Made by a program: the position numbers and the translations under genes. The notes below the pieces were generated by a model, which worked only from the letters and a program-made list of their open reading frames with translations, ran no database searches and was not told the origin of the DNA. A stretch of DNA of 64,000 nt from an uncultured Granulosicoccus sp. (GTDB lineage Bacteria; Pseudomonadota; Gammaproteobacteria; Granulosicoccales; Granulosicoccaceae). This document shows, piece by piece, positions 2,359 to 29,501 of the stretch. How positions within the stretch are numbered: the first letter of the stretch is position 1; each line of letters starts with the position of its first letter. The stretch is taken from NCBI GenBank assembly GCA_965367215.1, contig CBDUIJ010000001.1, positions 1,901 through 65,900 on the forward strand. Reading direction: 5' to 3'.

Positions 2359-3420
2359 CTATCCCTCCAGACGTAATTCTCTCTTGCTGATCCACTGTTG
2401 GATCAGCAAGCTTTCCTTCCGCCAGTCATGGCGTGTAGACACCTTGTGGCAATCGCCATAGTGGCTACCAGCTCTGTTCCTGTCTTCTGACTCAATCGTA
2501 TCGACGGTGAACCCATGAACCTCGATGTGCAGATTCGGAAAGTGCTCCATCAGGGTATGCAGAACGAGAATACCCGCACTGGGTGGAGCCTCGAGAAGCC
2601 GAACCAGTGAATACCAGCTATCCAGTGGTGTCAGAGCCAGACTGGTGAAGGGCAGTCGCGCCAGGCGTGACCAGTACCGAGAGCTTCGCATGAACGGGGC
2701 AGGCCCGCTGAGACACAGATTGTGGCAGGGCATCTTGCTTCCATTGATGGAAAACCCAGGAGATACCACCCACAGCCCGGTTTGTTGGCCAGTATCGTGG
2801 CGCATCGATTCCCCCGTATGTATCTGGTTGAATCGAATGACCAGATCGGCTGAATCGATTCGCTCGCCGGCGGCACGGCCCCTTAATGACGGCCCGTTGC
2901 CAACAACAGCGATACGAGGGACAGGACAGTCTCCCTTCTGTTGAGCGAATAACTCCTCACACCACTGCGTAAGCGTGGTTGTGCGCTCCAGAAGGCTGGT
3001 GGCCAGCCTTGCCATACGTAATGTCAGAAAGTCACATCCGCAGTTCTTCTGCTGATGGATATGATTCAGAGCCAGGGGGAATCGGTAAAGTGCAAGCGCG
3101 CGCCTCAAGGACCACCGTTGCTTTTCGAGACCATGAAGTCTTGATCCTGCCTCTTGAGCAAGCCCCAGTTGGAGTTCAGCGCTGAGTAAGCGCCAGAAGA
3201 GTGACCAACACGTATTCCCCTGGCATTTCTGCCAGGCGTCAAACCGGTTCAGATGCTCGGCGCTCAGACCGTTGAGGCAGTGTTGAATATCATAGGCCAG
3301 TATGATTGCATCAGCATCGGAGGAATCGGTGACGAGTCTCCATATGTCGTCTACCAGTTGCTGCGTCCAGCGGCCTTCCCTGAATCTTCGTTCACAGTCG
3401 GAAATACTGATGCTGTCCAT
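2359..3420 (-). CDS. GT29-like (sialyltransferase-motif) glycosyltransferase with an unassigned 160-aa N-terminal region
   Basis: 353 aa. Four motifs occur in the order and spacing of sialyl motifs L, S, III and VS: aa 165-198 CPVPRIAVVGNGPSLRGRAAGERIDSADLVIRFN, aa 279-304 PPSAGILVLHTLMEHFPNLHIEVHGF, aa 320-323 HYGD and aa 331-336 HDWRKE. The start ATG shares one nucleotide with the upstream stop (TGATG). Confidence 0.6.
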   Translation of the reverse strand: MDSISISDCERRFREGRWTQQLVDDIWRLVTDSSDADAIILAYDIQHCLNGLSAEHLNRFDAWQKCQGNTCWSLFWRLLSAELQLGLAQEAGSRLHGLEKQRWSLRRALALYRFPLALNHIHQQKNCGCDFLTLRMARLATSLLERTTTLTQWCEELFAQQKGDCPVPRIAVVGNGPSLRGRAAGERIDSADLVIRFNQIHTGESMRHDTGQQTGLWVVSPGFSINGSKMPCHNLCLSGPAPFMRSSRYWSRLARLPFTSLALTPLDSWYSLVRLLEAPPSAGILVLHTLMEHFPNLHIEVHGFTVDTIESEDRNRAGSHYGDCHKVSTRHDWRKESLLIQQWISKRELRLEG

Positions 3421-4634
3421 CAGCGTGGATGCTTGAACGCTCGTAACCAGCGAACCTCACTGTCTTCGATGAAGCGACTCGGAGATTGCCGAAACTTGAC
3501 GAATTTTCTGTGCTTGCGCTCAAGAGAGGTTCGCAGCAGTTGTAATCGGCTGGGGGAGGCTGCCGGCGAGAATGCAGAAGGGATGATGAAATCCAGACAC
3601 GATACAGGTCGTTCAGTCAATGCCCGTCCAGCCCAGTGGCCTTGCAGCGTGATATTCAATGAGGTGCCGGAATTGTCGTGTTTGAGCCATTTTTCTATCG
3701 TGCTGCGAAGCTGTCGGCATGCATTGTCAACCACGATGGCAGACCCATCTCCGGTATATCCCCGCAGCCAGCTTTTCTGCTGCTGACGAGCTACCATCGA
3801 TTTGCTGGTATGGCACCCATGCCGAAGCCACTTGATGGAGTGGTGGTTGATGGCATCCACATCGAGAAGTTTTTCATCTTTCCAGAGTGCAACAGGCAGA
3901 TCGAACTGAAATGCATCTGCAAGATTGCCCAGGTTTCCACACAAGGCGATACTGGCATTGCCCATCATGGCCCCCAGCATACTCTTTCTGTCGGGAGTCA
4001 CGGCAGTCATGCCCATTCTGGACATGCCGGGAATGCGAGCCCTGAGCCGAGCCATGAGCTCGCGACTGTGGTTCGCCCCGAAGGCATCTCTGTGTACGCA
4101 CTCGATGCTGGTCTGTGATGGCACGGGTTTGAGCGTGTCGAGCAAGGAGCAGATCTTTTCGACCAGTGAATCTTCATGACGACTCTCTGTGCCGTCCGGC
4201 ATCATGATCAGTATTCGGTAGTTTGCCCTGTCGGATTGAAGCGCGTGTCCTTGCGCGTCCGATCTGAATCGAGAGTGAAATTCTGCTGATGTCATGACAC
4301 AGGCCGGCTTTGCCTCGATACGGTTCTCTCCGATGACTTGCTGGAGTGTCGCGTATGAATCGCAATCGGCTTGAAGCAGCAGTTTGTCGCAGAACAGTCC
4401 TCCGGGAGCCAATGGTGCAAGCTTGAGCCAGGTGCCGTTGTCCACGCTCAAACCCAGGCATTGATCAGCGCTCAACAGGTGGTCTGAGAATATTCCCGAG
4501 GATTGCGGTATCGAGCCAAGATCCAGATACTCATGATGAGTGTCTACAACGTGCGTCAGAGAGCTTTTCAGGCAATGTGAGATCCCCTCGAGTTGCGCAT
4601 TGAGGCGATCTTCGTAGCAGAGGTTCATCAGCAT
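3420..4634 (-). CDS. Hypothetical protein of the capsule glycosyltransferase operon (no recognisable domain)
   Basis: Long ORF tightly packed between two GT genes. The ATG at 4634 lies 1 nt after the upstream TGA (the track ORF begins at a TTG at 4646), and its stop overlaps the next ATG. The basic C-terminal tail reads RKHRKFVKFRQSPSRFIEDS. I could not match a catalytic motif. Confidence 0.5.
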   Translation of the reverse strand: MLMNLCYEDRLNAQLEGISHCLKSSLTHVVDTHHEYLDLGSIPQSSGIFSDHLLSADQCLGLSVDNGTWLKLAPLAPGGLFCDKLLLQADCDSYATLQQVIGENRIEAKPACVMTSAEFHSRFRSDAQGHALQSDRANYRILIMMPDGTESRHEDSLVEKICSLLDTLKPVPSQTSIECVHRDAFGANHSRELMARLRARIPGMSRMGMTAVTPDRKSMLGAMMGNASIALCGNLGNLADAFQFDLPVALWKDEKLLDVDAINHHSIKWLRHGCHTSKSMVARQQQKSWLRGYTGDGSAIVVDNACRQLRSTIEKWLKHDNSGTSLNITLQGHWAGRALTERPVSCLDFIIPSAFSPAASPSRLQLLRTSLERKHRKFVKFRQSPSRFIEDSEVRWLRAFKHPR

Positions 4635-4635
4635 A

Positions 4636-5712
4636 TCAGGCCGCAATTGCCGGTTTGGCGTGTTTCCAGTATTCGGAACTGTCCCAGGCCTTCATGAGTG
4701 CTGCGCATTGGGCTTGAGCCGTACAGTGTCGAGTCGCGTAGTTGATCAATGCATCGGAACAGGACGCACGGTATTCAGGATCCACCGCGCGGTTCAGTGC
4801 CTGTTCCCAGTCGGCTTCGCGCTTGATCACCATCAATCCGTCGATGTCGTGTTCCAGCAGGTCACTGGTGGGGGAGCAGAGTGCCGGCACACCCAGAGCG
4901 GCAGATTCTATGAACTTGATATGAGATTTGGCAAAGCTGAAAGGGGTGTCGAGCAAGGGGGCCAGTGTCACACAGCTTTGCGCAATCAGTTCTGGCAGAG
5001 CGTAGTAATCGACCCAGGGTGTCAGGTGCAGTTGTTCTCCCGGTAGTGTGGTGCCTTGCAGTCCTATTTTCCCCACCAGTGACAATGTAGCGTCGGGGTG
5101 GGCTTCCAGACACCGCTTGAGTGTTGGAGCAATGAGTTGAAGATCTCGATCATGACTGCGGCTACCCGGCAGGTAGCTGAGTCTGGCTGTGGCGGGCGGG
5201 GTGGTTCTTGCCTGTTCGGCGTGCTGAAGCCAATAGGCAGATAGACCGTTACGCACGATGGTGATCCGCGTGTTCGGACAGTGCGTGCGTGCTGCTGATG
5301 CCAGTGCAGGGGTGGATACCGTCAGTTCATCAAACAGTGGTAATGATCTTGCGTGCTTCCTGAATTGATTCTGTACGTGCGCCACCGATGCCTGTGAGTT
5401 CAGTACTTTAGGGGACTGCTCTGCCATGGCGGGGTCGAAGACCAGATCATCGAAGTCAGCGACCAGATGGATTCCCCGGGCTCTGCACACATCGCTCAGC
5501 TGTTGCAGTTTCTGAGAATAGAGAGGTCTCAGGCAGCTGACGATATCGTAGCGATTCAGATCGGTGGTACGCAGATCAGCCAGACTTTGAACTTCCGCCT
5601 GGTGATTGTTGTTCTGCAGTACTTCAGCGTGATTGAAGCAGCGATAGCGTGTAGAGCCGTCGCCATAGGCCAGCCGATCCAATCGAGCATGTGTGAGGAA
5701 TAGTACATTCAT
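4636..5712 (-). CDS. GT-B fold glycosyltransferase (GT4/GT1-like)
   Basis: 358 aa. The C-terminal half carries the GT-B retaining-type signature region KSHIKFIESAALGVPALCSP (E-x7-E-like). Its position inside the GT operon supports the call. Confidence 0.6.
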   Translation of the reverse strand: MNVLFLTHARLDRLAYGDGSTRYRCFNHAEVLQNNNHQAEVQSLADLRTTDLNRYDIVSCLRPLYSQKLQQLSDVCRARGIHLVADFDDLVFDPAMAEQSPKVLNSQASVAHVQNQFRKHARSLPLFDELTVSTPALASAARTHCPNTRITIVRNGLSAYWLQHAEQARTTPPATARLSYLPGSRSHDRDLQLIAPTLKRCLEAHPDATLSLVGKIGLQGTTLPGEQLHLTPWVDYYALPELIAQSCVTLAPLLDTPFSFAKSHIKFIESAALGVPALCSPTSDLLEHDIDGLMVIKREADWEQALNRAVDPEYRASCSDALINYATRHCTAQAQCAALMKAWDSSEYWKHAKPAIAA

Positions 5713-5771
5713 GTCAACTGGCGTACCTGAATCACGGCGTGTTGCGGTTGATCATGCAAGTGGTGCAAATC

Positions 5772-7865
5772 TCAGGCCACAGGAGGTGGTGCTGCTTCCA
5801 GCATGGGTTGTTCCTCGACCAGGCTAAGCATCGGATTCCAGTAGGGATCCCTGTGGATGTACTGCTTCCAGCGTTGGTGCATGACTTTGCATTCCGTCGC
5901 GAAGCGGGCCGCCTTGTCGGGCGAATCATCCTTGCCGCGGGAGAGCGATTCATGGTGGGTGATGGTGACGTCCGAGAGCATCAGATTGTCAAAGCCTGCG
6001 GCATGTACGCGCAGGCAGAAGTCGACGTCATTGAATGCCACCGTGAGTTCCTTGTCGTCCAGGCCACCCAGCTGTTCGTAGGTATCACGACGAATTGCCA
6101 GGCAAGCTGCAGTCACTGCGCTCACCTGATGGGGCCATTGCAATTTGTGTAGATAGGAGGCTGCGTCCGATTTCTGAAACCGGTGAGCATGGCCCGCAAC
6201 GCCTTTCATTCCCATGACGACACCTGCGTGCTGTACCCGCCCGTTGTCGTATAACAGCTTGGCTCCCACACAGCCGACGCGGGGTAACATGCATGCCTGT
6301 ACCATGCGCGTCAACCAGTCTGCTTGCACGATCTGAGTGTCGTTGTTGAGTAGTATCAGTACATCACTCTGTGTTTGGCTGGCAGCGTAGTTGTTGATGG
6401 CCGAATAGTTGAAGGTACCCGGAAAATCGAGTACTGAATAGCGAGGTTCATCTTGCATCGAGTCATGAAAACGCGATGTTGCCGCTTCCGTACTACCGTT
6501 ATCAATTACGCTGATATGGTAGTTCGGGTAGTCCGTCAAGGACAGGATCGACTCCACGCATTGGCGCAACAGGGGTTCCTTGTCGCGGGTAGGAATCAGA
6601 ATCTCGACTCGTGGTGGGGCATCGAGCACGTTCAGCCGAAGCGCGGAAACTGGCGGTGTGAGCAGCTCTGCGGCGCGCTGAGTGAACCAGCGATCCTGGC
6701 TGGAAACATCGCTCGGTTCCGGCTGTGAGAACAGGACTCCGGGGATATGTACCACCTGATCCCTGTTTATCACCGAGCGGGCCTGTAGCAGAAAGTCATA
6801 GATCGCCGTCTTTGCCATGGAGGACTTCAGCCCACCTGTTTTCAGGTAGAGTTCGCTGGAGCACACGCACAGATCGCCGATGTAGTTACCGGCTTCAAGC
6901 AGGTAGGGGTCCCAGCCAGGCTTGATCACGGGGTGTTTTCGCTCCCGATTTTCACACAGCTTGTCATGATCGGTATAAAGCAGCTCGCATTGCGCATTCT
7001 GTGCGAGTACGCGGGTAATCGAAATCAGGAATTCCGAACCGGGAACAATTCCGGAACCTGCCAGCACGATATGATGAGGCTCTGTCAGTGGATCTGTTTC
7101 CGTTTCCTGCCCGGCCAGACAGCTGATGGCAATGCTCGGCGTTCGCCCTCCCAGCATGCTCTTGAGCTCCGTGATCGATTGCTCCCACACAGCATTGTCG
7201 CTCTGGTTCATCGTGAAGATCTGAAGACTGATCCGGTTTGTCGACAGGCCGTGCCAGTCCGTATTTCTCCAGTGATTGGCCAGCGTGATGAGGTGATCAT
7301 GCAACCAGTACGAGTAGGGCTTGGGGGTGAATCCGCGCTGGTTGGTCTGGTGGTACACCTGATAAAGCTCTTCCACGGATGGCCAGTGACCATGACTGCG
7401 TAACATGTCTGTCTGAACATGTTCTATGTTGTCGACGGAGTCCTTGTGTTGCAGGGGGTCGAAACGCCGGGTCATGCGCTTCAGCATGCGTTTTGCTGCG
7501 CGACGACGAGAGACTCTTGTCAGATCGATATCCAGACACAGGCTGGCGTCCAGGTTTCCTTCCAGCGAGACGATGATATGAGTGATCTTCTCTCTGACCT
7601 GTACGACCCTTCGCGTTGCCCGCGCGCTGGTGAGCAACAGCTGTTCGCTTCGTCCTGCCACATCCAGGGTCAAGGTGTGTCCAATCGGACTTTCAACAGA
7701 ATCGTTGCCGCGCGGACTGACCTGCAACAAGTACCAGCCCGGGTTCAGAATGATGAAAATGCGTCTCGCATTGGAATCCAGACAGACGGAATTCCCCCAC
7801 TTGAGTGGCTTCCTCAAACCTGAAAGCGTGAGAAACACATTGGCAATACTCGTAATACTTGGCAT
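5772..7865 (-). CDS. Family 2 glycosyltransferase with a large unassigned N-terminal domain
   Basis: 697 aa. The C-terminal 280 aa show the GT2 pattern: ILIPTRDKEPLLRQCVESIL, VIDNGS, LLNNDT (the DxD-equivalent region) and VGAKLLYDNGRVQHAGVVMG. The N-terminal 400 aa or so are unassigned. Confidence 0.78.
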   Translation of the reverse strand: MPSITSIANVFLTLSGLRKPLKWGNSVCLDSNARRIFIILNPGWYLLQVSPRGNDSVESPIGHTLTLDVAGRSEQLLLTSARATRRVVQVREKITHIIVSLEGNLDASLCLDIDLTRVSRRRAAKRMLKRMTRRFDPLQHKDSVDNIEHVQTDMLRSHGHWPSVEELYQVYHQTNQRGFTPKPYSYWLHDHLITLANHWRNTDWHGLSTNRISLQIFTMNQSDNAVWEQSITELKSMLGGRTPSIAISCLAGQETETDPLTEPHHIVLAGSGIVPGSEFLISITRVLAQNAQCELLYTDHDKLCENRERKHPVIKPGWDPYLLEAGNYIGDLCVCSSELYLKTGGLKSSMAKTAIYDFLLQARSVINRDQVVHIPGVLFSQPEPSDVSSQDRWFTQRAAELLTPPVSALRLNVLDAPPRVEILIPTRDKEPLLRQCVESILSLTDYPNYHISVIDNGSTEAATSRFHDSMQDEPRYSVLDFPGTFNYSAINNYAASQTQSDVLILLNNDTQIVQADWLTRMVQACMLPRVGCVGAKLLYDNGRVQHAGVVMGMKGVAGHAHRFQKSDAASYLHKLQWPHQVSAVTAACLAIRRDTYEQLGGLDDKELTVAFNDVDFCLRVHAAGFDNLMLSDVTITHHESLSRGKDDSPDKAARFATECKVMHQRWKQYIHRDPYWNPMLSLVEEQPMLEAAPPPVA

Positions 7866-8258: not shown

Positions 8259-9206
8259 ATGATTGCTTACCATATTCTTTGTCATGGAAACTTCAAGCAA
8301 GTAGCCATGCTTGTAGATTCTCTGTTCAGCACGGATGATGTTTTTCTGATCGATATAGACGACGGCCAGAAGCCTGATCTGAAGCCTCTGGAGAAGTACA
8401 GAAATATATCGAACGTACACATCAGCTGTGACTCGAACATCTCCTGGGGCGGGGGAGGGACTCTTCGCAAGACCATAAAGGGAGCCTTTTTTCTTCTCGA
8501 TACCGATAAGTCGTGGGATTACTATGTCGTGCTGAGTGGTCAGGATCTGCCTCTGCAATCCAGAGAGCAGATCAAGAACCGTCTCGGTCGCGGTATCGTC
8601 GAGAAGACCAGCTACATTCGTGCGGTACGAACACCCGTATTGTCTCTGGATGAAATACCGGTAGACAACAAGAAGAACGAATGTGTTCTGTGGGGAGACC
8701 GCGGACATACCAAGGTATTTGCCAAGCCTGGCACAATCAATCCTCAAGTCGACTTTGCAGCTCGTTGGCTGGTGGATGTGGCAGAGATTGGCGAGATTGG
8801 TCATGTCTATGTCGGTAGTTGTGATTCCCTGTTGTTGAAACGTCGAGAGATGTACTTCAGGAAATACCCGTTCCACATTGGCGCAAACTGGTTCAACCTC
8901 CACAGGTCTGTCATTGAACACATGCAGAAGGATGAATTTGCCTATGAGTTGTACGATGTTCTGAAGAATACCTTCATTCCGGATGAGAGCTATTTTCAGA
9001 CCTACATCAAGAATTCCCCCTTTCGCGATAACACAGACAATGATTATGGTCGCCTGATCCTGCGTCCCGGGCCCAGACCCAGAGTCAAGGTCTTCGGTAT
9101 GGAAGACCTGCCTGCCATCGAAAGCTCCAACGATCTCTTCGGTCGGAAGTTCGATCTGAACCATGATGCCAGGGTGATCAAGGAGGTTCTTGAACGAGCG
9201 GCATGA
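8259..9206 (+). CDS. GT14 (Core-2/I-branching 'Branch' domain) glycosyltransferase
   Basis: 315 aa. IAYHILCHGNFKQVAMLVDSLF, FLIDIDD, ISWGGGGTL and WDYYVVLSGQDLPL follow the Branch-domain order as I remember it (iaYli.vH, hvD, v.WG..s, wdyf.nLSg.D.Pl). The gene is lower in G+C than its neighbours. Confidence 0.68.
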   Translation: MIAYHILCHGNFKQVAMLVDSLFSTDDVFLIDIDDGQKPDLKPLEKYRNISNVHISCDSNISWGGGGTLRKTIKGAFFLLDTDKSWDYYVVLSGQDLPLQSREQIKNRLGRGIVEKTSYIRAVRTPVLSLDEIPVDNKKNECVLWGDRGHTKVFAKPGTINPQVDFAARWLVDVAEIGEIGHVYVGSCDSLLLKRREMYFRKYPFHIGANWFNLHRSVIEHMQKDEFAYELYDVLKNTFIPDESYFQTYIKNSPFRDNTDNDYGRLILRPGPRPRVKVFGMEDLPAIESSNDLFGRKFDLNHDARVIKEVLERAA

Positions 9207-11322
9207 GGTGGGGCAGGTGAACAGAGGACCTGATTCCAGGCCGGCAGTAGCGTTTTCCTCCGGTATTCGCGCCATCAGAAACATCGAACGATTTCTGGAG
9301 GTGGACTCGGTCATCAGCCCACAGCGTGCCTGGAAGAACAGGAACGCTGTTTCCAGTGTTGTCGTCTGGGGCCGCAAACAGAACTCGCAACGTGCACTAC
9401 AGTACGCCAGTTGCCATGGGCTGAACGTGCGCTACGTGGAAGATGGCTGGATCAGAACCAGTTCCAAAGATGCACATTCCCGGTGCTGTTATTCACTGCT
9501 CGTGGACGATACCGGTGTCTACTACGACAGCCGACAGCCCAGTGATATCGAAAACTATCTGAATCTGCCGGATGTCGATTTCGCCGTCAGCTGCGACAAC
9601 AAGGCACTTGAGTACGCTCGAGAGAATCGCGAGCGGATGGTCGAGCATGGAATAACCAAATACAATTTCTGTCCGAAACCTGCGCAGGTGCTGCTGGAGT
9701 CAGGCGCAAGGCCGCTGGTTCTCGTTATCGACCAGACAAGGGATGATGCCTCTGTTCGCTTCGGCGGGATGCAGGAAGGCGATTTTCCAGCGATGCTTGA
9801 TCGCGCCGTAGCAGAAAATCCGGGTGCTCGTATTGTGGTACGAACCCATCCCGATGTCGTTGCTGGCCGTAGAGAAGGCTATCTGAGCGAGTACGCCAGG
9901 CAGTTGGGTCTGGAGATCAGTGCCGCGGGTGACAACCCGATCTTCTGGTTGAAGAAGGCCGCCCGAGTCTATGTGGGGACATCACAGCTGGGTTTCGAGG
10001 CGCTGATGTGCGGATGCAAGGTCAGTGTTGCAGGTCTGCCGTTTTACGCCGGTTGGGGTTTGACGGAGGATTGCCAGACTCTGGCTCGACGAGTGAGAAC
10101 ACGTACACTGGATCAGGTTTTCCATGCAAGTCATGTCTATCTGGCCCGATATCTCGACCCGGTCAGTGGAGCTCGATGGCAGTTGCACGAGTGTATCGAG
10201 CATGTGCGAGTGCAGCTGGAGGCGTTTGAGCGCAATGCCCATGCCTTCGCCTGTGTCGGCATCACTCCCTGGAAGAAGGGGATTGTTGCGCAGTATCTGA
10301 GATCGCCCGATGGCAATGTCCGGTTCTGTCGCAAGGATGATGTCGGCATGGATGAGAGGGCTGTCTACTGGAGTTTTGCCGATTCCAGAGTGACCGGTTG
10401 CCCCAATGGCTCGGGCACCCCATCAGAGGGTGGCGAGCAGAAGGCAGTTTCCCGCCTTGAGGACGGTTTCATCCGGTCACGTGGACTGGGCTCGGACTTC
10501 GTCCTGCCGGCGTCACTGGTTGTCGACCATGGTGGCCTGTACTTTGATCCTTCGTCAGATAGTGATCTGCAAGAGCTGCTCAACAGCGTCGACTGCACGA
10601 CTGAGAATATCGAACGAGCCAGACGACTGAGACACTCACTTCTGGCAACTCGACTGACCAAATACAATGTGTCTTCAAGTGTGGAAGCTGTGACGCCGCT
10701 CGACACGCTGGACCATGGCGACAGATTGCATGTGTTGGTTGTAGGGCAAGTGGAAGACGATCAATCCATTCTGCGAGGTTGTGTCGACGTGTCCTCGAAT
10801 GGAGACTTGTGCAGCGCCGTTCGTTTGGCCAGGCCGGATGCCCATATCACCTACAAGCCTCATCCGGATGTCGAGTCCGGCAATCGCAAAGGGGCCGTGT
10901 CGGCCCGTATCATCGATGAGTGTGTTGACAGAGTGGAGCACCAGCGAAACTTCCTGGATTGTCTGGAGGAATGCGATGAGTTGCATACCATGACATCCCT
11001 GTCGGGTTTTGAAGCCTTGCTCCGCGGCAAGACTGTTCATACCTACGGCAAGCCTTTCTACGCCGGATGGGGGCTGACCCACGACCATGTCGAATTTCAA
11101 AAGCGCAGGAGAATCCGGACACTGGAGGAATTGATCTATCTGTGTCTGGTGATCTACCCACGCTACCTGGATGTTGCCAGCGGGGAGTTCATCACTGTCG
11201 AGCAACTGGTGTCTTCACTTGCCACAGGTGCCGAAAAAGAAGAATCAGCCCACAGCAACTCGATGAGCCTGTGGAAGAAACTCAACAACATCCGCAAAGC
11301 AGTCAATTACCGGCCAATCTGA
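9190..11322 (+). CDS. kpsC: Capsule beta-Kdo transferase KpsC (two tandem capsule-synthesis domains)
   Basis: 710 aa. The N-terminus aligns with E. coli KpsC from memory (SSGIRAIRNIERFLE, VVVWGRK, VRYVEDGWIRTS). The HPDV..G.R.G motif appears twice (THPDVVAGRREGY and PHPDVESGNRKGA), as does FYAGWGLT. The start is uncertain: TTG at 9190, or GTG at 9208 or 9217. Confidence 0.87.
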   Translation: MNERHEVGQVNRGPDSRPAVAFSSGIRAIRNIERFLEVDSVISPQRAWKNRNAVSSVVVWGRKQNSQRALQYASCHGLNVRYVEDGWIRTSSKDAHSRCCYSLLVDDTGVYYDSRQPSDIENYLNLPDVDFAVSCDNKALEYARENRERMVEHGITKYNFCPKPAQVLLESGARPLVLVIDQTRDDASVRFGGMQEGDFPAMLDRAVAENPGARIVVRTHPDVVAGRREGYLSEYARQLGLEISAAGDNPIFWLKKAARVYVGTSQLGFEALMCGCKVSVAGLPFYAGWGLTEDCQTLARRVRTRTLDQVFHASHVYLARYLDPVSGARWQLHECIEHVRVQLEAFERNAHAFACVGITPWKKGIVAQYLRSPDGNVRFCRKDDVGMDERAVYWSFADSRVTGCPNGSGTPSEGGEQKAVSRLEDGFIRSRGLGSDFVLPASLVVDHGGLYFDPSSDSDLQELLNSVDCTTENIERARRLRHSLLATRLTKYNVSSSVEAVTPLDTLDHGDRLHVLVVGQVEDDQSILRGCVDVSSNGDLCSAVRLARPDAHITYKPHPDVESGNRKGAVSARIIDECVDRVEHQRNFLDCLEECDELHTMTSLSGFEALLRGKTVHTYGKPFYAGWGLTHDHVEFQKRRRIRTLEELIYLCLVIYPRYLDVASGEFITVEQLVSSLATGAEKEESAHSNSMSLWKKLNNIRKAVNYRPI

Positions 11323-11525: not shown

Positions 11526-12917
11526 ATGCACCAAAGCGCGTTTCTGTCTGCGGTACCACCCACGCATGATGGCAGGGAGTCTGTTGTCAGGCGGGATGGA
11601 CAGAATTCGCGAAACGTGTTGCTGTTGCAGGGGCCGGTGGGTCCATTCTTCTCGCGTTTCAGCGAAGACCTGGAAGAGCGCGGGTTCTCGGTCACCAAGA
11701 TAAATTTCAACGGAGGTGATCGCTTCTTCTATCGCCGTCCCGATGCTCTCGATTACACCGGAACACTGGACGACTGGGAAGCATGGCTTGAGCGTATGGT
11801 TGTCAATCGCGGGTTCTCTCGTTTCTACCTGTTTGGTGATTGCCGCGCTTATCATCGTATTGCCTGTGAAGTTGCTGCCAGGAACAATGTGCGAGTCTTC
11901 GTTTTCGAAGAGGGGTATATCCGCCCGAATTTCATTACGCTTGAAGAAGATGGCGTCAACGGTCGCTCCACCATGCTGTCCCAGCCTTGCGCTATACCCA
12001 GTGTGCCTGAAGAGCTGCCGCAGGAACATCAGCAACCAGTCAATGTGTTTCTGATAACTGCCTTGTACTCCATGATCTACTACTGGGCAAGTGCCGCTGG
12101 CAAACGCCATTTCGAGCACTATCGCCACCATCGTCCGTTTGACTGGTTTCCGGAAGGGGTCCGCTGGCTACGTTCATTCACGCGCAAATGGATCTACTCG
12201 CGACGTGAGAAACACGTGCTGGACACCTTGCTTCCGCAATTTGATGGAAATTACTTTGTCTGTCCCTTGCAGGTACATTGCGACATGCAAGTCGTTGTTC
12301 ATTCGGATTACAATTCCATTGAACATTTTGTCGGGGATGTACTGGCCTCATTTCGGCAACACGCCCCCAGTAGCAAGGCAATAGTATTCAAGCATCATCC
12401 CATGGACCGTGGGTATACGGACTATACAACGCTGTTTGCCAACCTCACGGCGGAGCTCGGGCTGCAGGGGAGAGTGTTCTATGTACACGATGTCTGCCTG
12501 CCGACATTGCTACAGCATGCACAAGGCACCGTGCTGATAAACAGCACCGTTGGACTTTCATCGCTGTTTCATGGCACACCCGTCAAGCCACTGGGCAAGA
12601 CGATCTACGATATACCCGGGTTGACTTCGCAGCTGGATCTTGATGATTTCTGGAATGTGGAACGGTTCGTGGACAAGGCCAACTTTCAGGCCTTCCGATC
12701 ATTTCTCATCATGAGAAATCAGCTGAACGGCAACCTCTACCGTCGTATAGGTGACCAGGGTGCCAGTGGCATAGTCTGGTCGAGTGATCTTGATAGCGAG
12801 CACCGCTGGAAGGAAGCCAAGGTCGAACCGGTCAGCAAGCCGCGACTCAGAGTGGTACGTGGCGAGCAAGCGTCGCGACCACGCAAGGGTGGTGACGGCA
12901 ACGCCGAAGCCGCTTGA
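11526..12917 (+). CDS. kpsS: Capsule beta-Kdo transferase KpsS
   Basis: 463 aa with an ATG at 11526. VLLLQGPVGPFFSRF, KINFNGGDRFFY, LFGDCRAYH and VFEEGYIRPNFITLEEDGVNG closely parallel the E. coli KpsS N-terminal half. Confidence 0.88.
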   Translation: MHQSAFLSAVPPTHDGRESVVRRDGQNSRNVLLLQGPVGPFFSRFSEDLEERGFSVTKINFNGGDRFFYRRPDALDYTGTLDDWEAWLERMVVNRGFSRFYLFGDCRAYHRIACEVAARNNVRVFVFEEGYIRPNFITLEEDGVNGRSTMLSQPCAIPSVPEELPQEHQQPVNVFLITALYSMIYYWASAAGKRHFEHYRHHRPFDWFPEGVRWLRSFTRKWIYSRREKHVLDTLLPQFDGNYFVCPLQVHCDMQVVVHSDYNSIEHFVGDVLASFRQHAPSSKAIVFKHHPMDRGYTDYTTLFANLTAELGLQGRVFYVHDVCLPTLLQHAQGTVLINSTVGLSSLFHGTPVKPLGKTIYDIPGLTSQLDLDDFWNVERFVDKANFQAFRSFLIMRNQLNGNLYRRIGDQGASGIVWSSDLDSEHRWKEAKVEPVSKPRLRVVRGEQASRPRKGGDGNAEAA

Positions 12918-13253: not shown

Positions 13254-14546
13254 TCAGCCTTGGGTTACGGGTAGTATTCTCGCAGCCTCTGCAAGAGTAA
13301 TGATGCCTTCCTGAGCCAGTCTCAGCAGGTCTCTGGACATTCCCCGTTCATCGCGAAGGCGTTGCAGTGAGCGTCTGATATCGTTGTTGTAGAAGCTGTC
13401 TCTGATTTCATCGTCAAGAGTGACGATGGAGCACAGGTCCAGCGTCTTGCCCAGACCGGTATGGTTGCAACGCTCGCAACCATCGGCAGTACTGAAGGAA
13501 GAGCGCAAGCGGTGCTGTAACCAGACGTTGATATTGCCGGCGATGATGGGGCTGTGCTCGGACAACCAGGCTGTACCCTGGTCGTCCGGGGAATGCGGGT
13601 AGCGACAGTAGGGGCAGAGACACTGCAAGCGTCGTTGTACGAGAACCGCAGACAGTGAGCGGGCGATCGCTTCACTGCGTACGCCGGCTGCCAGCAGGTG
13701 GTCCACTGCCGCTGCGGCCGAATCGGCTCTCACGCCTTGCACGATCAGGGTCGAGCTACTGGCCTGTCTTGCCAGTAGTTGTGTCATGTCATCACTGTGC
13801 GTATTGCAGGCGACAATGGCATCGCAGCCAAGTTCGCACAGTGCAGGCCAGTTCTGAAGATTGTCAGGTGCGGCGACCGTGTCGATGGCCAGTTGTATGA
13901 CTCTGGGCATCGGTGGATGTCCGGGTGCCTCCGCGCAGATGATCTTGCGGTCAGGGGCGACCAGTTCCTGCGCCATGGCGCGTACGGTCTGTGCACGTGC
14001 CTGTGGATGCGAGCAAGCGACCAGCAGAAGGCCGGATTCCTGTTTCAGGAGTTCGCGTACCTGCGACTGCTGTTTTCTGCTCAATGGCAGTTCGTCGAGG
14101 CGAGGGGGAGGGGCTTTCAGATCATGCTGCAATGTGATCAGGTAGGTATCACCCCGGGAAGTCGGGACAGCATCCAGTTGTACGAGCCGTGGCCCTGTCT
14201 GCAGCGTGAAACCGAACCATGCCCGGCGCGCCTTCGTCTGTCGAGAGTCTCCCCAGAGATACGATTGCAGGAGTTCCATGCAATCGATGTGAGAGGCGGC
14301 ATTTTCAATGCGAACCTCGCTCAGACCAAACACTGTGCGCAGACGTAGTCTCAGGCAGTCGTTGTCGGGTTCGAGGTGTATTTCGTCTGCTTGCGCGAGG
14401 ATGGCTGAATCCAGCAGATCCACCAGTACCTTCCAGCGTGCTCGTTCGCTTGCGGGGCAAACGGACGAGACGCCGGTAAGGTCAACAGCATTGAGAGGAG
14501 CTGATGGATTCTGGAACGCCGGGCTGTTGATCAACGAAATAGTCAT
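13254..14546 (-). CDS. GspE/PilB-family secretion-ATPase-like protein with degenerate nucleotide-binding motifs
   Basis: 430 aa. The N2-like region (ADEIHLEPDNDCLRLRLR) and the C-terminal Cys cluster (CLCPYC ... CERCNHTGLGKT) are retained. At the Walker A position it reads LLLVACSHPQARAQTV rather than VTGPTGSGKTTT. The Walker B (CDAIVACN) and His-box (IVQGVRAD) positions are also altered. Confidence 0.6.
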   Translation of the reverse strand: MTISLINSPAFQNPSAPLNAVDLTGVSSVCPASERARWKVLVDLLDSAILAQADEIHLEPDNDCLRLRLRTVFGLSEVRIENAASHIDCMELLQSYLWGDSRQTKARRAWFGFTLQTGPRLVQLDAVPTSRGDTYLITLQHDLKAPPPRLDELPLSRKQQSQVRELLKQESGLLLVACSHPQARAQTVRAMAQELVAPDRKIICAEAPGHPPMPRVIQLAIDTVAAPDNLQNWPALCELGCDAIVACNTHSDDMTQLLARQASSSTLIVQGVRADSAAAAVDHLLAAGVRSEAIARSLSAVLVQRRLQCLCPYCRYPHSPDDQGTAWLSEHSPIIAGNINVWLQHRLRSSFSTADGCERCNHTGLGKTLDLCSIVTLDDEIRDSFYNNDIRRSLQRLRDERGMSRDLLRLAQEGIITLAEAARILPVTQG

Positions 14547-14664
14547 CGAAACTTCACTTGCAGAGTCAACACCTTATCGGCGATTGAACCTCAAAGCGTT
14601 AGAACAGCAGGTAATGTGAAGCCCGATCCATGAGACAGATGTCGCAATCTGTCTCATGGTGTGA

Positions 14665-15003
14665 TCAATTGATGGTGCACTCCAGTGATTCCCCGACGCG
14701 AAAACACCGTTTTCCCGGCGCGCAGGGTATGCCGGCAGGCAAGGCGGTGGATCCGGCCGGACAGACATTTCCTCGCTCTCCGGTACACCATTTGCCATTG
14801 TTCAGTTCATAACAGGCTGCATCGTCCTGCAGACACTGACTGCTACTGTCCACCTGAGTGTCGGTGCTCTTGCAGGCATTGGCATGGCCGCCGTTGCCTG
14901 AAGGTCGCGAGGACTTGTTAAGGCCGCCACCCGACGAAGCGCAAGCACTCAGCAGGACAGCAAGGGCAATGACAACCAGGCTGCGACAGGCTGTTGATCG
15001 CAT
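14665..15003 (-). CDS. Small Cys-rich lipoprotein
   Basis: Taking the start at M18 of the track ORF gives MRSTACRSLVVIALAVLLSAC with an L-S-A-C lipobox. The mature part has 8 further Cys. Its ATG shares one nucleotide with the fumA stop (TGATG at 15001-15005). Confidence 0.5.
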   Translation of the reverse strand: MRSTACRSLVVIALAVLLSACASSGGGLNKSSRPSGNGGHANACKSTDTQVDSSSQCLQDDAACYELNNGKWCTGERGNVCPAGSTALPAGIPCAPGKRCFRVGESLECTIN

Positions 15004-16535
15004 CACTTGAAATACACCGGTTTGACTTCGCCTCTGTCCAGCTTGCCTTTCCACAATGCAGGCCCGGTTATATGTACGGACTCGCCGGTGGTGTCGACAG
15101 CAACCGTTACCGGCATGTCTTCAACGACAAACTCATGAATGGCTTCCATGCCCAGCTCTTCGAAAGCCACGACTCTGGACTTGCGAATGGCCTTGGACAC
15201 CAGATAGGCAGCACCACCGACAGCCATCAGATAGACAGCCTTGTGCTTGCGAATGGCATTGATGCCGGCTTCGCCGCGTTCGGCCTTGCCGATCATGCCG
15301 AGCAGACCACACTGATCGAGCATCATCTCGGTGAATTTGTCCATGCGGGTCGAGGTAGTGGGGCCGGCGGGTCCGACGACCTCATCACGCACTGGGTCGA
15401 CCGGTCCGACGTAGTAGATGAAGCGCCCGTTGAAATCCACACCCTCGGGCAGTCCTTCGCCACTTTCCAGCAGGCTCTGGATACGCTTGTGCGCGGCATC
15501 GCGACCCGTCAGCATGGCGCCGCTGAGCAGCAGGGTCTCACCGGGTTTCCAGGTGGCGACCTCTGCGGGGGTGACGGTATCCAGGTTCACGCGTCTGGCA
15601 CCGGCTCCGGCATCATAGGTAATCGCCGGCCAGTCATTCAGTGAAGGCGGCGTCTGCAGGGCAGGGCCACTGCCGTCGAGCACGAAGTGTGCGTGTCGAG
15701 TGGCGGCACAGTTGGGAATCATGGCAACCGGCTTGGAGGCCGCATGAGTCGGAAAATCGAGAATCTTGACATCGACGACGGTGGTCAGACCACCCAGACC
15801 CTGGGCGCCGATACCCAGTGCATTGACGGCTTCGAAGATCTCCAGTCGCAGCTCCTCGATTCGGTTCTTCGGTCCGCGATCCTTCAGCGCCTGGATATCG
15901 ACGGGGGCCATCAAGGATTGCTTGGCCAGCACGGCAGCCTTTTCCGAGGTGCCGCCGATACCAATGCCAAGCATGCCTGGCGGGCACCAGCCAGCGCCCA
16001 TGGTCGGTACGGTCTTGACGACCCAGTCCACGATGCTGTCGCTGGGGTTGAGCATGACCAGTTTGGATTTGTTTTCCGAGCCACCGCCCTTGGCAGCAAT
16101 CTCGAATTCCACGGTGTCACCTTCCACGATTTCGGTATGGATGACTGCCGGTGTATTGTCGCCGGTGTTCTTGCGGGCGCCGGCCGGGTCGGCCAGGATG
16201 GATGCGCGCAGTTTGTTGTCCGGATGGTTGTAGGCACGCCGGACACCTTCATTGATCATGTCCGTGAGGCTCATCTTCGCATCCCACTGCACGTTCATGC
16301 CGACCTTGATGAAAACGGTCACGATGCCGGTATCCTGGCACAGGGGTCGCTTGCCTTCGGCGCACATGCGGGAGTTGACCAGGATTTGCGCCATGGCATC
16401 CTTGGCCGCCTTGGATTCTTCACGTAGCCATGCTTCGTGCACGGCATCGATGTAATCCTTGGGGTGGTAGTAAGACATGAACTGCAAAGCGTCGCAGACA
16501 CTGTCTATCAGGTCATCCTGGCGAATCACGCTCAT
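15003..16535 (-). CDS. fumA: Class I (Fe-S) fumarate hydratase
   Basis: About 510 aa from MSVIRQDDLIDS. It contains the CQDTGIV motif, and both the alpha and beta domains are present (GRFIYYVGPVDPV, GKAERG). The upstream in-frame extension to 16580 is probably not translated. Confidence 0.92.
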   Translation of the reverse strand: MSVIRQDDLIDSVCDALQFMSYYHPKDYIDAVHEAWLREESKAAKDAMAQILVNSRMCAEGKRPLCQDTGIVTVFIKVGMNVQWDAKMSLTDMINEGVRRAYNHPDNKLRASILADPAGARKNTGDNTPAVIHTEIVEGDTVEFEIAAKGGGSENKSKLVMLNPSDSIVDWVVKTVPTMGAGWCPPGMLGIGIGGTSEKAAVLAKQSLMAPVDIQALKDRGPKNRIEELRLEIFEAVNALGIGAQGLGGLTTVVDVKILDFPTHAASKPVAMIPNCAATRHAHFVLDGSGPALQTPPSLNDWPAITYDAGAGARRVNLDTVTPAEVATWKPGETLLLSGAMLTGRDAAHKRIQSLLESGEGLPEGVDFNGRFIYYVGPVDPVRDEVVGPAGPTTSTRMDKFTEMMLDQCGLLGMIGKAERGEAGINAIRKHKAVYLMAVGGAAYLVSKAIRKSRVVAFEELGMEAIHEFVVEDMPVTVAVDTTGESVHITGPALWKGKLDRGEVKPVYFK

Positions 16536-18948: not shown

Positions 18949-19974
18949 ATGAATATCCAGCAGGCACTCGAGCTGTTGATTGAACGAAAGGATCTGCAGG
19001 CGGCCGATATGGAATCGGTCATGCGGCAAGTCATGACCGGTGAGGCCACGCCTGCGCAGATCGGCGGTTTCCTGATAGCCCTGCGCATGAAGGGTGAAAC
19101 AGTGGATGAGGTTGCGGCAGCAGCCAAGGTCATGCGTACACTGGCGTCCGGGGTTTCGCTGGAACATGCCGACGCCATCGATATCGTCGGTACCGGCGGG
19201 GACTCCACCAGCACCTTCAATGTCTCCACCTGTAGCGCCATCGTGGCGGCCGCCGCAGGTGCCAGAGTTGCTAAACACGGCAGTCGCTCGGTGTCCAGCA
19301 AGTCCGGCGCGGCAGACCTGCTGGAAGAGGCGGGGGTCAATATCGACCTGACGCCCGAGCAGGTGGCGCACTGCGTCGACGAGCTGCAGTTGGGGTTCAT
19401 GTTTGCACCACGTCATCACAGTGCCATGAAGCACGCTATCGGGCCGCGACGAGAGATGGGGGTCCGTACCATCTTCAACCTGTTGGGTCCTCTGACCAAT
19501 CCCGCCGGTGCGCGGAGTCAGTTGCTGGGCGTCTACAGCAAACACTGGGTCAGGCCGGTAGCCGAGGTACTCGAGAAGCTGGGCAGTGATCATGTCATCG
19601 TGGTCCACGGGCACGATGGCATGGATGAGATCAGCATCAGCGGGCCCACTCAGGTGGCTGAACTGAAGGATGGCAAGGTGAGCGAATACGTGATCGAGCC
19701 GTCGCAGTTCGGTATCGAGGTCTCACCGCTGGACAGCATCCGAGTCAAGGGTGCCGCCGAGAGTCTGAAGATGATCAAGAGTGTGCTGGCCAACGAGGCC
19801 GGTCCCGCTCGCGATATTGTCGTTCTCAATGCGGGAGCCGCGCTGTGTGTTGCCGGTATTGCCGAGTCGATTGGAGATGGCGTTGCTCTGGCAGACGAGG
19901 TCATCGTCAACGGTGCAGCTGCCCGCAAGCTCGCTCAGCTGATCTCCGTTTCCCAGTCATTTGATCCAGCCTGA
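18949..19974 (+). CDS. trpD: Anthranilate phosphoribosyltransferase
   Basis: 341 aa. Motifs seen: IVGTGGDSTSTFNVST and KHGSRSVSSKSGAADLLE. Confidence 0.94.
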   Translation: MNIQQALELLIERKDLQAADMESVMRQVMTGEATPAQIGGFLIALRMKGETVDEVAAAAKVMRTLASGVSLEHADAIDIVGTGGDSTSTFNVSTCSAIVAAAAGARVAKHGSRSVSSKSGAADLLEEAGVNIDLTPEQVAHCVDELQLGFMFAPRHHSAMKHAIGPRREMGVRTIFNLLGPLTNPAGARSQLLGVYSKHWVRPVAEVLEKLGSDHVIVVHGHDGMDEISISGPTQVAELKDGKVSEYVIEPSQFGIEVSPLDSIRVKGAAESLKMIKSVLANEAGPARDIVVLNAGAALCVAGIAESIGDGVALADEVIVNGAAARKLAQLISVSQSFDPA

Positions 19975-19995
19975 TCTGCAGGAGCGATAGCGAAG

Positions 19996-20805
19996 ATGAA
20001 CACCAAACTGGATGTGCCGGATATTCTCAAGCGGATCATTGCCCGGAAGCATGAGGAAATCGCTGACAGGCAGCGCAGTACTCCGATGCACGCCCTCATC
20101 ACGCAGGCCGAGCAGGTCGGGGATTGTCGTGGGTTCGTGCAGGCGCTGAACAGCAAGGTCGAACAGGGGCAGGCTGCCGTGATTGCCGAGGTCAAGAAGG
20201 CCTCGCCCAGCAAGGGCGTTCTGAGAGATCCGTTCGATCCGGCCAGTATTGCTGCCAGCTACGAAGCGGGCGGGGCGGCTTGCCTGTCAGTCCTGACCGA
20301 TGCCGATTTCTTTCAAGGCAGTGAAACGGCATTGCGAGAGGCCAGAGCAGCTTGTAGCTTGCCTGTCATCCGCAAGGATTTCATCGTCGATGCCTACCAG
20401 GTCGCCGAGGCAAGGGCCATCGGAGCCGACTGTATTCTGTTGATTGCAGCGGCGCTGGATGATCGATCATTGTCAGATCTGTATCGTCAGGCCGTCGATC
20501 TTGGCATGGATGTACTGGTCGAAGTCCATGATGCCGTCGAGTTGCAACGTAGTCTGAAGCTCTCGCCGATGCTGTTGGGTATCAACAATCGAGACCTGCG
20601 AAGCTTTGATGTATCGCTGGAGACGACGGAATCGCTGTTGGCGGAAATTCCTGCGCAAACGCATGTCGTCACCGAGAGCGGAATCATGAATACCGGTGAT
20701 GTGCAACGTATGCGCAAAGCGGGCGTGCACACCTTTCTGGTGGGCGAGGCCTTCATGCGTGCGCCGGACCCGGGTCTGGCACTTCAACAGATGTTTGCCG
20801 GCTAG
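19996..20805 (+). CDS. trpC: Indole-3-glycerol phosphate synthase
   Basis: 269 aa. Motifs seen: [19 protein letters not shown] and [10 protein letters not shown]. Confidence 0.94.
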
Positions 20806-29159: not shown

Positions 29160-29501
29160 GGTGTTGTTTTCAGGTAGAGTCAGGCTGTCGAGGCAGTGTC
29201 AATTGCAGGTGACAATTACCGTGTCAGCTTGAATATGCCAACAGTGACATCATAGTGTAAGACATTGGCGCTCAACGAGCGTACTTTACAAGGTACAGTT
29301 TTTCTACAGGGTCTGAACGCAAGATGCATTTGGCAGTATGGAAAAATTTGCCGGATACAATGTATGACACATATTCGAAATACAATTGATGGCCCTGAAG
29401 AGTATTTTCGTTTCATGTCTCAAGGAATCGCGAGTGTCATAAGGTAGTTGAATTGGCACCCGTGTCATCGCTCGCACGTTAAATCATAACTTCAATTGAC
29501 A

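Follow-up and report, generated by a model that had tools for sequence, protein, structure and literature searches.

A GT29-family glycosyltransferase gene in a KpsC/KpsS capsule locus of Granulosicoccus and its KpsC-coupled bacterial relatives

Within a 64-kb stretch of DNA from Granulosicoccus, a marine gammaproteobacterium (the whole stretch that was analysed is hereafter called the window), a gene encoding a GT29-like glycosyltransferase (2359-3420, minus strand; an open reading frame (ORF) of 353 aa with an ATG start) closes an operon located back-to-back with the capsule genes kpsC and kpsS, and takes its place among 19 bacterial GT29 genes that form a KpsC-coupled clade. The membership of its product (an N-terminal helical domain followed by a C-terminal catalytic domain of the GT-A-variant type) in glycosyltransferase (GT) family 29 is solid and, judging by its motifs and genomic company, we consider it very probable that the protein acts as an active GT29-type transferase of a cytidine monophosphate (CMP)-activated ulosonic acid in capsule synthesis. 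[quoted passage not shown]

Family membership, sialylmotifs and fold

The 353-aa protein matched PF00777 (Glyco_transf_29) in Pfam with E=8.3e-13 and 48.8 bits (gathering cutoff 23), the hidden Markov model (HMM) alignment being limited to aa 160-223 (64 of the 353 residues), that is, to the region of motif L; no further Pfam family matched at E<=1, and NCBIfam contained no model matching the protein. PF00777 was also found precomputed for all 17 relatives retrieved from 5.8 billion proteins, and the closest named relative is a Granulosicoccus antarcticus protein (69% identity) that NCBI names ‘glycosyltransferase family 29 protein’. A profile of the family collected 6139 proteins at E<=1e-3 and 164 at E<=1e-30 from 1.84 billion cluster representatives, and the only PDB entries that it matched were GT29 sialyltransferases (E=8e-11 to 8e-8). 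The family assignment made in the preliminary description, which had been read from the letters and a list of ORFs, is thus borne out by the Pfam search.

The same description had proposed four peptides as GT29 sialylmotifs, and these were found in order and at exactly the residues that it gave (all on the minus strand): motif L (2827-2928; aa 165-198, CPVPRIAVVGNGPSLRGRAAGERIDSADLVIRFN; core IAVVGNGPS...IDSADLVIRFN), motif S (2509-2586; aa 279-304, PPSAGILVLHTLMEHFPNLHIEVHGF; PPSAG...HGF), motif III (2452-2463; aa 320-323, HYGD) and motif VS (2413-2430; aa 331-336, HDWRKE), the last of which harbors the predicted catalytic His and Glu. In the family alignment (17 sequences, with identity down to ~24%) the conserved positions coincide precisely with the motif residues: A171, G174, N175, P177, I188, R196 and N198 are invariant in motif L, P280, G283, G303 and F304 in motif S, and H331 and E336 in motif VS, and conservation of at least 90% was recorded for R330 and W333 (motif VS) as well as for H320 and D323 (motif III). 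Motif L aligns with its counterparts in ST8Sia-III, ST6GalNAc-II and ST3Gal-I. Furthermore, the profile laid PSAG...GF...HY.D...H....E onto PSTG...YGF...HYFE...HDLSLE of ST6GalNAc-II (as a second stretch, individually weak at 6.4 bits), and motif S (PPSAG...HGF) was aligned with ST3Gal-I as well.

One detail of the motif reading did not stand: C165, which had been taken for the motif L cysteine, sits 5 residues upstream of the AVVGN core (which is immediately preceded by an Ile, not a Cys) and is present in 6 of the 17 homologues. The eukaryotic disulfide cysteines are indeed missing, as had been remarked for motif S, since none occurs at the motif positions and none is conserved across the family.

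From the 17-sequence alignment AlphaFold2 produced a confident model (mean predicted local distance difference test score (pLDDT) of 86.7, predicted template-modelling score (pTM) of 0.87), in which the loop formed by residues 308-318 is the sole disordered stretch. When this model was compared with the PDB by Foldseek, ranks 1-30 were all occupied by mammalian GT29 enzymes (ST3Gal-I, ST6GalNAc-II, ST8Sia-III and ST6Gal-I; E=1e-7 to 6e-4, probability 1.0, target template-modelling scores of ~0.37-0.52), and the first sialyltransferase from outside GT29 (Pasteurella 9c08) appeared with an E of 1e-2 only. The predicted fold therefore agrees with the one that the motifs had led the preliminary description to expect.

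Bacterial sialyltransferases of the families GT38, GT42, GT52 and GT80 use CMP-sialic acid, and those of GT42 (Campylobacter CstII type) have a related GT-A-variant fold with a GNGPS-type nucleotide-binding loop. Because the window protein has a GNGPS loop too, its membership in GT42 was considered, and was rejected since PF00777 is the only Pfam match at E<=1 and no GT42 structure occurs among the top 30. More generally, none of these four families gave a Pfam match, and the top structural matches all belong to GT29.

The N-terminal ~160 aa (2941-3420, minus strand), previously left without a name, are predicted to form an all-alpha domain of the helical-repeat or tetratricopeptide repeat (TPR)-like kind (DSSP helices over residues 6-159 of the model), with no transmembrane segment. 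Weak Foldseek matches link it to HAT/TPR proteins (6g70 and 5wrv), and in relatives the corresponding place, N-terminal to the GT29 domain, is taken by Pfam TPR repeats. The ‘TPR-like’ label rests on the predicted secondary structure and on these weak fold matches, because an hhalign comparison with a TPR-bearing fusion protein (locus L019, discussed below) aligned the catalytic domain, and the N-terminal region of the window family was not aligned to the TPR of L019.

No hydrophobic segment was detected in the protein (the maximum 19-residue Kyte-Doolittle-type (KD19) hydropathy being 1.21). As it possesses neither such a segment nor a cysteine conserved throughout the family, we read it from its sequence as a soluble, cytoplasmic member of GT29 that lacks the eukaryotic membrane anchor and disulfide. 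The type-II membrane topology and the conserved disulfide between motifs L and S, which together are the hallmark of the eukaryotic enzymes, were accordingly not found; since other bacterial GT29 proteins likewise lack both (according to passages of Petit et al. 2018, PMC5811610), these traits mark the eukaryotic subgroup rather than the family.

Capsule genes and the KpsC-coupled clade

In a pattern-seeded scan that covered 185,579 species genomes, 81 loci with bacterial GT29 genes were confirmed (82 with the window), among them Granulosicoccus, Idiomarina, Rheinheimera, many Rhizobiales, Actinobacteria, Lachnospiraceae, Helicobacter and Moraxella nonliquefaciens. ORFs were called in the 81 loci and the window, clustered and mapped, with ~10 kb covered on each side per locus. 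The window and 18 of these loci (Granulosicoccus/Granulosicoccaceae, Idiomarina, Rheinheimera, Alkalilimnicola and a metagenome-assembled genome (MAG) of the Desulfuromonadales) constitute a clade: in a neighbour-joining tree of 57 catalytic domains the 19 KpsC-linked sequences are monophyletic, and those linked to NeuB lie elsewhere. In 18 of the 19 clade loci the gene kpsC lies close to the GT29 gene, at a distance of 41-5770 bp, as compared to 2 of the 63 others (Fisher p=6e-15), and the one clade locus without kpsC nearby is a contig of 4.7 kb that stops too soon. Moreover, the GT29 gene is preceded by the glycosyltransferase gene c1 in every clade locus (19/19, versus 0/63 elsewhere), and a second glycosyltransferase gene, c2, is present in 17/19. 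Outside the Granulosicoccaceae c1 is found directly upstream of the GT29 gene, and in most Granulosicoccaceae loci a further gene (c7) is inserted between the two. The gene order of the window recurs in G. antarcticus. The strict synteny with kpsC and the GT4-like (c1) and GT2 (c2) genes, the KpsC-coupled clade and its split from the NeuB-linked clades are observations added by the present analysis.

In the window, the operon runs along the minus strand in the order c2-c1-c7-GT29, with frames that overlap or nearly abut. Its first gene, c2 (5772-7865), encodes a GT2-family glycosyltransferase of 697 aa (PF00535 at aa 422-599, E=8e-16), and c1 (4636-5712) a GT4-like GT-B glycosyltransferase of 358 aa (Pfam Glyco_trans_1_4). 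The third, c7 (3420-4646; 408 aa, without a family match), is translationally coupled to the GT29 gene, which begins with an ATG that overlaps this upstream neighbour's stop codon by one base (cgcTGATGgac). Divergent from the operon, on the plus strand, follow a GT14 ‘Branch’ glycosyltransferase gene (8259-9206; PF02485, E=1.9e-19) that overlaps the start of kpsC, kpsC itself (9190-11322; PF05159 in four stretches, E=2.8e-74), whose product builds the poly-Kdo capsule linker with dual beta-Kdo transferase modules, and kpsS (11526-12917; PF05159, E=1.8e-77), which encodes the first beta-Kdo transferase of the capsule lipid anchor. The presence of KpsC and KpsS at this locus had been reported in the preliminary description and is upheld by these matches; 5.8 kb lie between them and the GT29 gene. 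Since the operon stands back-to-back with GT14-kpsC-kpsS, we assign the GT29 protein a putative role in ABC-transporter-dependent (group 2-like) capsule synthesis. KpsM, KpsT, KpsD and KpsE were not found in the 64-kb window; among related loci, L010 and L017 have kpsMTED as an adjacent set, and L002 contains KpsD. The group 2-like character of the locus is thus seen directly in KpsC and KpsS, and indirectly, via related loci, in the exporter.

The neighbours of the GT29 gene in clade loci point to the nature of the capsule. Sulfation-related genes were found in L002 (13633-18606), L004 (12681-13538), L005 (10149-11006) and L011-L014 (L014: 80-1495 and 12622-16703), and the clade-locus neighbours comprise sulfotransferases, UDP-glucose dehydrogenase, CysD-type and CysN-type ATP sulfurylase subunits and adenosine 5'-phosphosulfate (APS) kinase, together with a sulfate transporter and a CysQ-like phosphatase that complete the set for the synthesis of 3'-phosphoadenosine 5'-phosphosulfate (PAPS), as well as kpsMTED. 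Judging by these neighbours, the capsule of the clade is probably a sulfated acidic polysaccharide.

The model of c1 (AlphaFold2, pLDDT 94) matched PimA, MshA and BshA in Foldseek (E~1e-11). We examined whether c1 could be a hidden beta-Kdo transferase of GT107 or GT99, as c1 and the GT29 protein would then mirror the GT107-GT29 fusions of E. coli, and rejected this on the grounds that its profile gave no PDB match and its confident model resembles GT4 enzymes. Orthologues of c7 form a cluster in seven other Granulosicoccus/Granulosicoccaceae loci and carry a strongly conserved C-terminal motif (K[FL]xKF[KR]xSPxRFxxDS), which is shared by the divergent protein standing in the place of c7 in L004. 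Nothing in Pfam, NCBIfam or PADLOC matched c7, no relation to c1 was seen, and its PDB matches (to the C-terminal half of UDP-GlcNAc 2-epimerase, E=0.13-0.26) were insignificant.

On its other side the GT29 operon is met convergently by two plus-strand genes: an RmlA-type sugar-1-phosphate nucleotidyltransferase (1448-2347; PF00483, E=8.8e-74) and an NAD-dependent sugar-nucleotide epimerase/dehydratase (434-1426; PF16363 and PF01370), which is UDP-glucuronate-decarboxylase-like by sequence reading and whose cluster (c4) was found in 14 loci. The GT14 gene is kept in L001 (G. antarcticus) and L002, and in the syntenic G. antarcticus locus a GT61 gene was noted in addition (L001 17602-18399). 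GT29 and GT14, which co-occur in the window, are families best known from eukaryotes; in combination with GT61 in G. antarcticus and the sulfotransferases, they hint that these marine bacteria, which are associated with algae, bear sulfated acidic glycans of a eukaryote-like kind.

The G. antarcticus locus also contains a DDE transposase/DruA-domain gene and a group II intron reverse transcriptase (13515-15806 and 19322-20584), in a region that lies beyond the capsule genes and would fall left of the window start, which hints that the edge of the capsule locus is rich in mobile elements. Elsewhere in the window, an ORF at 29496-30446 (plus strand) joins an IS200-like Y1 transposase domain to a DnaA C-terminal helix-turn-helix domain, and another at 23883-27776 (plus strand; 1297 aa), which has no relation to the capsule locus, contains DUF3400 in addition to DUF3683, FAD-linked oxidase, 4Fe-4S and CCG domains.

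Proposed donor and competing readings

By extension from the characterised eukaryotic GT29 enzymes, we infer that the protein would bind a CMP-activated ulosonic acid (a 2-keto-3-deoxy sugar acid) via motifs L and S, that H331 of motif VS would serve as the general base that deprotonates the acceptor hydroxyl, and that the anomeric centre would be inverted, as it is by its eukaryotic relatives. The donor would most plausibly be CMP-beta-Kdo, which is already consumed by the neighbouring KpsC and KpsS, and the product an alpha-Kdo residue, placed either in a repeat made jointly with the GT4-like and GT2 enzymes or at the point where the beta-Kdo linker passes into the polymer. For the clade as a whole, we tentatively suggest (with somewhat less assurance than for the window protein) that its members may be dedicated inverting alpha-Kdo transferases, which would build a conserved, Kdo-containing, probably sulfated capsule backbone or make the linker-to-polymer transition. 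On this suggestion, and no more firmly, the GT4-like enzyme (encoded alongside in every clade locus) and the GT2 enzyme (encoded alongside in most) could be their partners, and the backbone would be set on the poly-beta-Kdo linker.

To our knowledge, every biochemically characterised GT29 enzyme uses CMP-sialic acids, and the foremost alternative is consequently a transferase of nonulosonic acids (N-acetylneuraminic acid (Neu5Ac), 2-keto-3-deoxynononic acid (Kdn), legionaminic or pseudaminic acid) that would contribute to a capsule containing such an acid, with the genes for the CMP-sugar located elsewhere in the genome. Other bacterial GT29 clades lend it some weight: NeuB occurs in 9 and NeuA-like genes in 7 of their loci, often directly beside the GT29 gene. 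The NeuB (PF03102)-linked sequences come from Lachnospiraceae, Desulfovibrionaceae, Adiutrix, some Alphaproteobacteria and Microbacterium (CTP_transf_3, i.e. NeuA-like, being present there too), and those of Firmicutes, Desulfovibrionaceae and others are probably true GT29-type nonulosonic-acid transferases, so that donors of this class are probably used within the bacterial family. The NeuB-linked loci are L029, L033, L034, L040, L049, L032, L058, L020 and L048, and in one case the NeuA-like protein is fused to a HAD phosphatase. In addition, bacterial GT29 sequences are interpreted as sialyltransferases in passages of Petit et al. (PMC5811610), and an unlinked pathway would be compatible with the inspected flanks of ~10 kb per locus.

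What makes us regard a nonulosonic donor as rather unlikely for the window protein is the content of its own clade. Searches by tblastn (three NeuB and two NeuA-like queries together with E. coli KdsB; E<=1e-4) detected neither NeuB nor NeuA-like homologues in the 64 kb of the window, in accordance with the earlier remark that no sialic acid pathway is nearby, nor in the other 18 clade loci (0/19 in all). Capsule loci for sialic acid polymers, in contrast, normally carry their own pathway genes (as in E. coli K1 and N. meningitidis). Further arguments come from the strict association with KpsC and from fusion proteins. The alphaproteobacterial locus L019 harbors two tandem genes (2739-4835 and 4859-7150), each of which encodes a KpsC-like Capsule_synth module, TPRs and a C-terminal GT29 domain. 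This GT29 domain was aligned by hhalign with the window family over all four motifs (probability 99.2%, E=7e-20), and the fusions carry the signatures of the window clade, PPSAG and, in motif VS, RHNWxxE, of which the NeuB-linked group has only ‘ptsG’ and ‘H....E’. We therefore consider that the comparative context strengthens the case for CMP-Kdo, which the preliminary description had already named as a possible donor, as the probable one.

Fusions of other kinds are scattered throughout the bacterial family: GT2 with GT29 in Moraxella nonliquefaciens (L046, 8564-10558) and in a Helicobacter MAG (L028, 8549-10552), GT29 with polysaccharide pyruvyl transferase in Rhizobiales and others (L020, L021, L023, L025, L026, L036, L039 and L045), GT29 with GT4 in Actinobacteria (L047, L052, L053, L058 and L062), and, in L040 (6104-9844), a protein of 1246 aa that unites GT29, GT4, MptE-like (Maf-type) and Nucleotid_trans domains.

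Several points weigh against a Kdo donor or temper the argument for it. The same tblastn searches detected KdsB, the CMP-Kdo synthetase, neither in the window nor in the clade loci, so that the locus content gives no positive pointer to Kdo. Taken alone, the lack of NeuB in all 19 clade loci falls short of significance (Fisher p=0.11), and these loci are phylogenetically related, which is why we place the weight on the association with KpsC, c1 and c2 and on the fusions. The signatures common to the clade and the fusion proteins are correlative, the neighbour-joining tree is without support values, and the inspection covered ~10 kb per side of each locus. Finally, our literature search found no assay of a bacterial GT29 enzyme and nothing usable on the capsule or Kdo structures of Granulosicoccus, Idiomarina or Rheinheimera.

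A second alternative retains the GT29 fold and changes its chemistry: the protein might use another CMP- or nucleoside diphosphate (NDP)-activated donor (e.g. a heptulosaric or other acidic sugar), or it might be a non-catalytic scaffold of the capsule polymerase. Plant members of GT29 have been proposed to use non-sialic donors (GALT29A being annotated as a galactosyltransferase), the helical domain at the N-terminus and the close coupling with three further proteins would fit a complex, and the loop 308-318 is disordered in the model. We nevertheless deem it improbable, as N175, R196, N198, P280, G283, H320, H331 and E336 are invariant or nearly so; indeed, it is because the CMP-binding and catalytic motif residues are kept near-invariant at ~24% identity that we argue for a retained GT29-type activity. 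The reading that survives least, a chance likeness of motifs or a mis-called ORF with no real gene behind it, could appeal to the short reach of the Pfam alignment (64/353 residues) and is refuted, to the point of being virtually inconceivable, by the E value of that match, the 17 homologues with their motifs kept, the 164 close representatives, the confident and specific fold model and the conserved operon synteny.

Comparison with known systems

The preliminary description had implied that a GT29 protein in a bacterium was a novelty, a premise that is outdated: bacterial GT29 proteins without transmembrane domain and disulfide were already reported in the 2018 paper (PMC5811610), NCBI labels the G. 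antarcticus orthologue GT29, and GT29-like domains of E. coli kps loci were proposed for Kdo transfer in 2026 (PMC13171606). Bacterial GT29 is therefore a known kind of protein, without demonstrated activity in the literature that we found. The protein falls outside the two known Kdo transferase families with which it was compared (GT107, that of KpsC and KpsS, and GT99, that of WbbB; no search was aimed at GT30 (WaaA) or GT73), since it has no PF05159 match and its structural neighbours are GT29 only (c1, for its part, belonging neither to GT107 nor to GT99).

With the eukaryotic GT29 enzymes (ST3Gal-I 2WNB/2WNF, ST6GalNAc-II 6APL, ST8Sia-III 5BO9 and ST6Gal-I 4JS2) the window protein shares the Pfam family, the GT-A-variant fold and the four sialylmotifs in the same order, the His-x4-Glu of motif VS included, at 17-22% identity. 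In contrast to them it lacks the type-II transmembrane anchor, the stem, the disulfide between motifs L and S and the lumenal topology, has a 160-aa helical N-terminus of its own, is encoded in a bacterial capsule operon, and its donor is probably not a sialic acid.

In passages of Petit et al. (2018; PMC5811610), bacterial GT29 ‘ST-like’ sequences are described from Alteromonas, Idiomarina and Loktanella, mostly from alpha-proteobacteria, with the transmembrane domain and the disulfide cysteines missing. These sequences and the window protein have in common the sialylmotifs, the lack of both eukaryotic traits and a marine proteobacterial origin, and the Idiomarina homologues fall into the same clade. 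The passages treat the proteins as sialyltransferases, contain neither genomic context nor donor analysis, and make no mention of Granulosicoccus. The present protein also bears on the bacterial origin of eukaryotic sialyltransferases proposed in that paper.

A 2026 survey of transporter-dependent capsules in E. coli (PMC13171606) describes GT29-like domains in K6_8, K126_10, K128_10 and K111_9, for which its authors propose Kdo transfer from CMP-Kdo; according to the same survey, the masses of the K6 capsule are consistent with a Kdo homopolymer, and the alpha-Kdo of K16 and K74 needs an inverting alpha-Kdo transferase. Like the window protein, these E. coli proteins belong to ABC-transporter-dependent capsule loci that use KpsC and KpsS, and K126_10 has a TPR helical region before its GT29 domain, which is the architecture of the L019 fusions. 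K6_8 and K126_10 join a GT107 KpsC-like module to GT29, K111_9 joins a GT-B domain to it, and K128_10 has a GT29 match only; going by these descriptions, the window protein is set apart as a stand-alone enzyme of 353 aa accompanied by a separate GT4-like gene. Capsule biology currently has no inverting alpha-Kdo transferase to name, and the window protein could fill that place.

The plant GT29 protein RCKT1 is required for the alpha-Kdo of rhamnogalacturonan II (RG-II) and has been interpreted as an inverting CMP-beta-Kdo transferase (PMC11288761). Compared by description, it resembles the window protein in being a GT29 member without a sialic acid context, for which CMP-beta-Kdo is the proposed donor and alpha-Kdo, formed by inversion, the proposed product, and differs from it as a Golgi membrane protein that acts on pectin and whose activity was inferred from mutant glycans. 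Expression of RCKT1 in E. coli did not succeed, nor was its activity reconstituted (PMC11288761); the predicted soluble, cytoplasmic and cysteine-independent GT29 protein of the cultivated G. antarcticus (the 69% orthologue) would offer an easy system for the CMP-Kdo question, and the same bacterial system may define what separates Kdo-specific from sialic-acid-specific GT29 enzymes. Should the KpsC-coupled clade indeed consist of alpha-Kdo transferases, it would provide the first bacterial GT29 enzymes with an assigned function, the missing inverting type of Kdo transferase for capsules, and a soluble, disulfide-free model both for plant RCKT1 and for the ancestor of the eukaryotic sialyltransferases.

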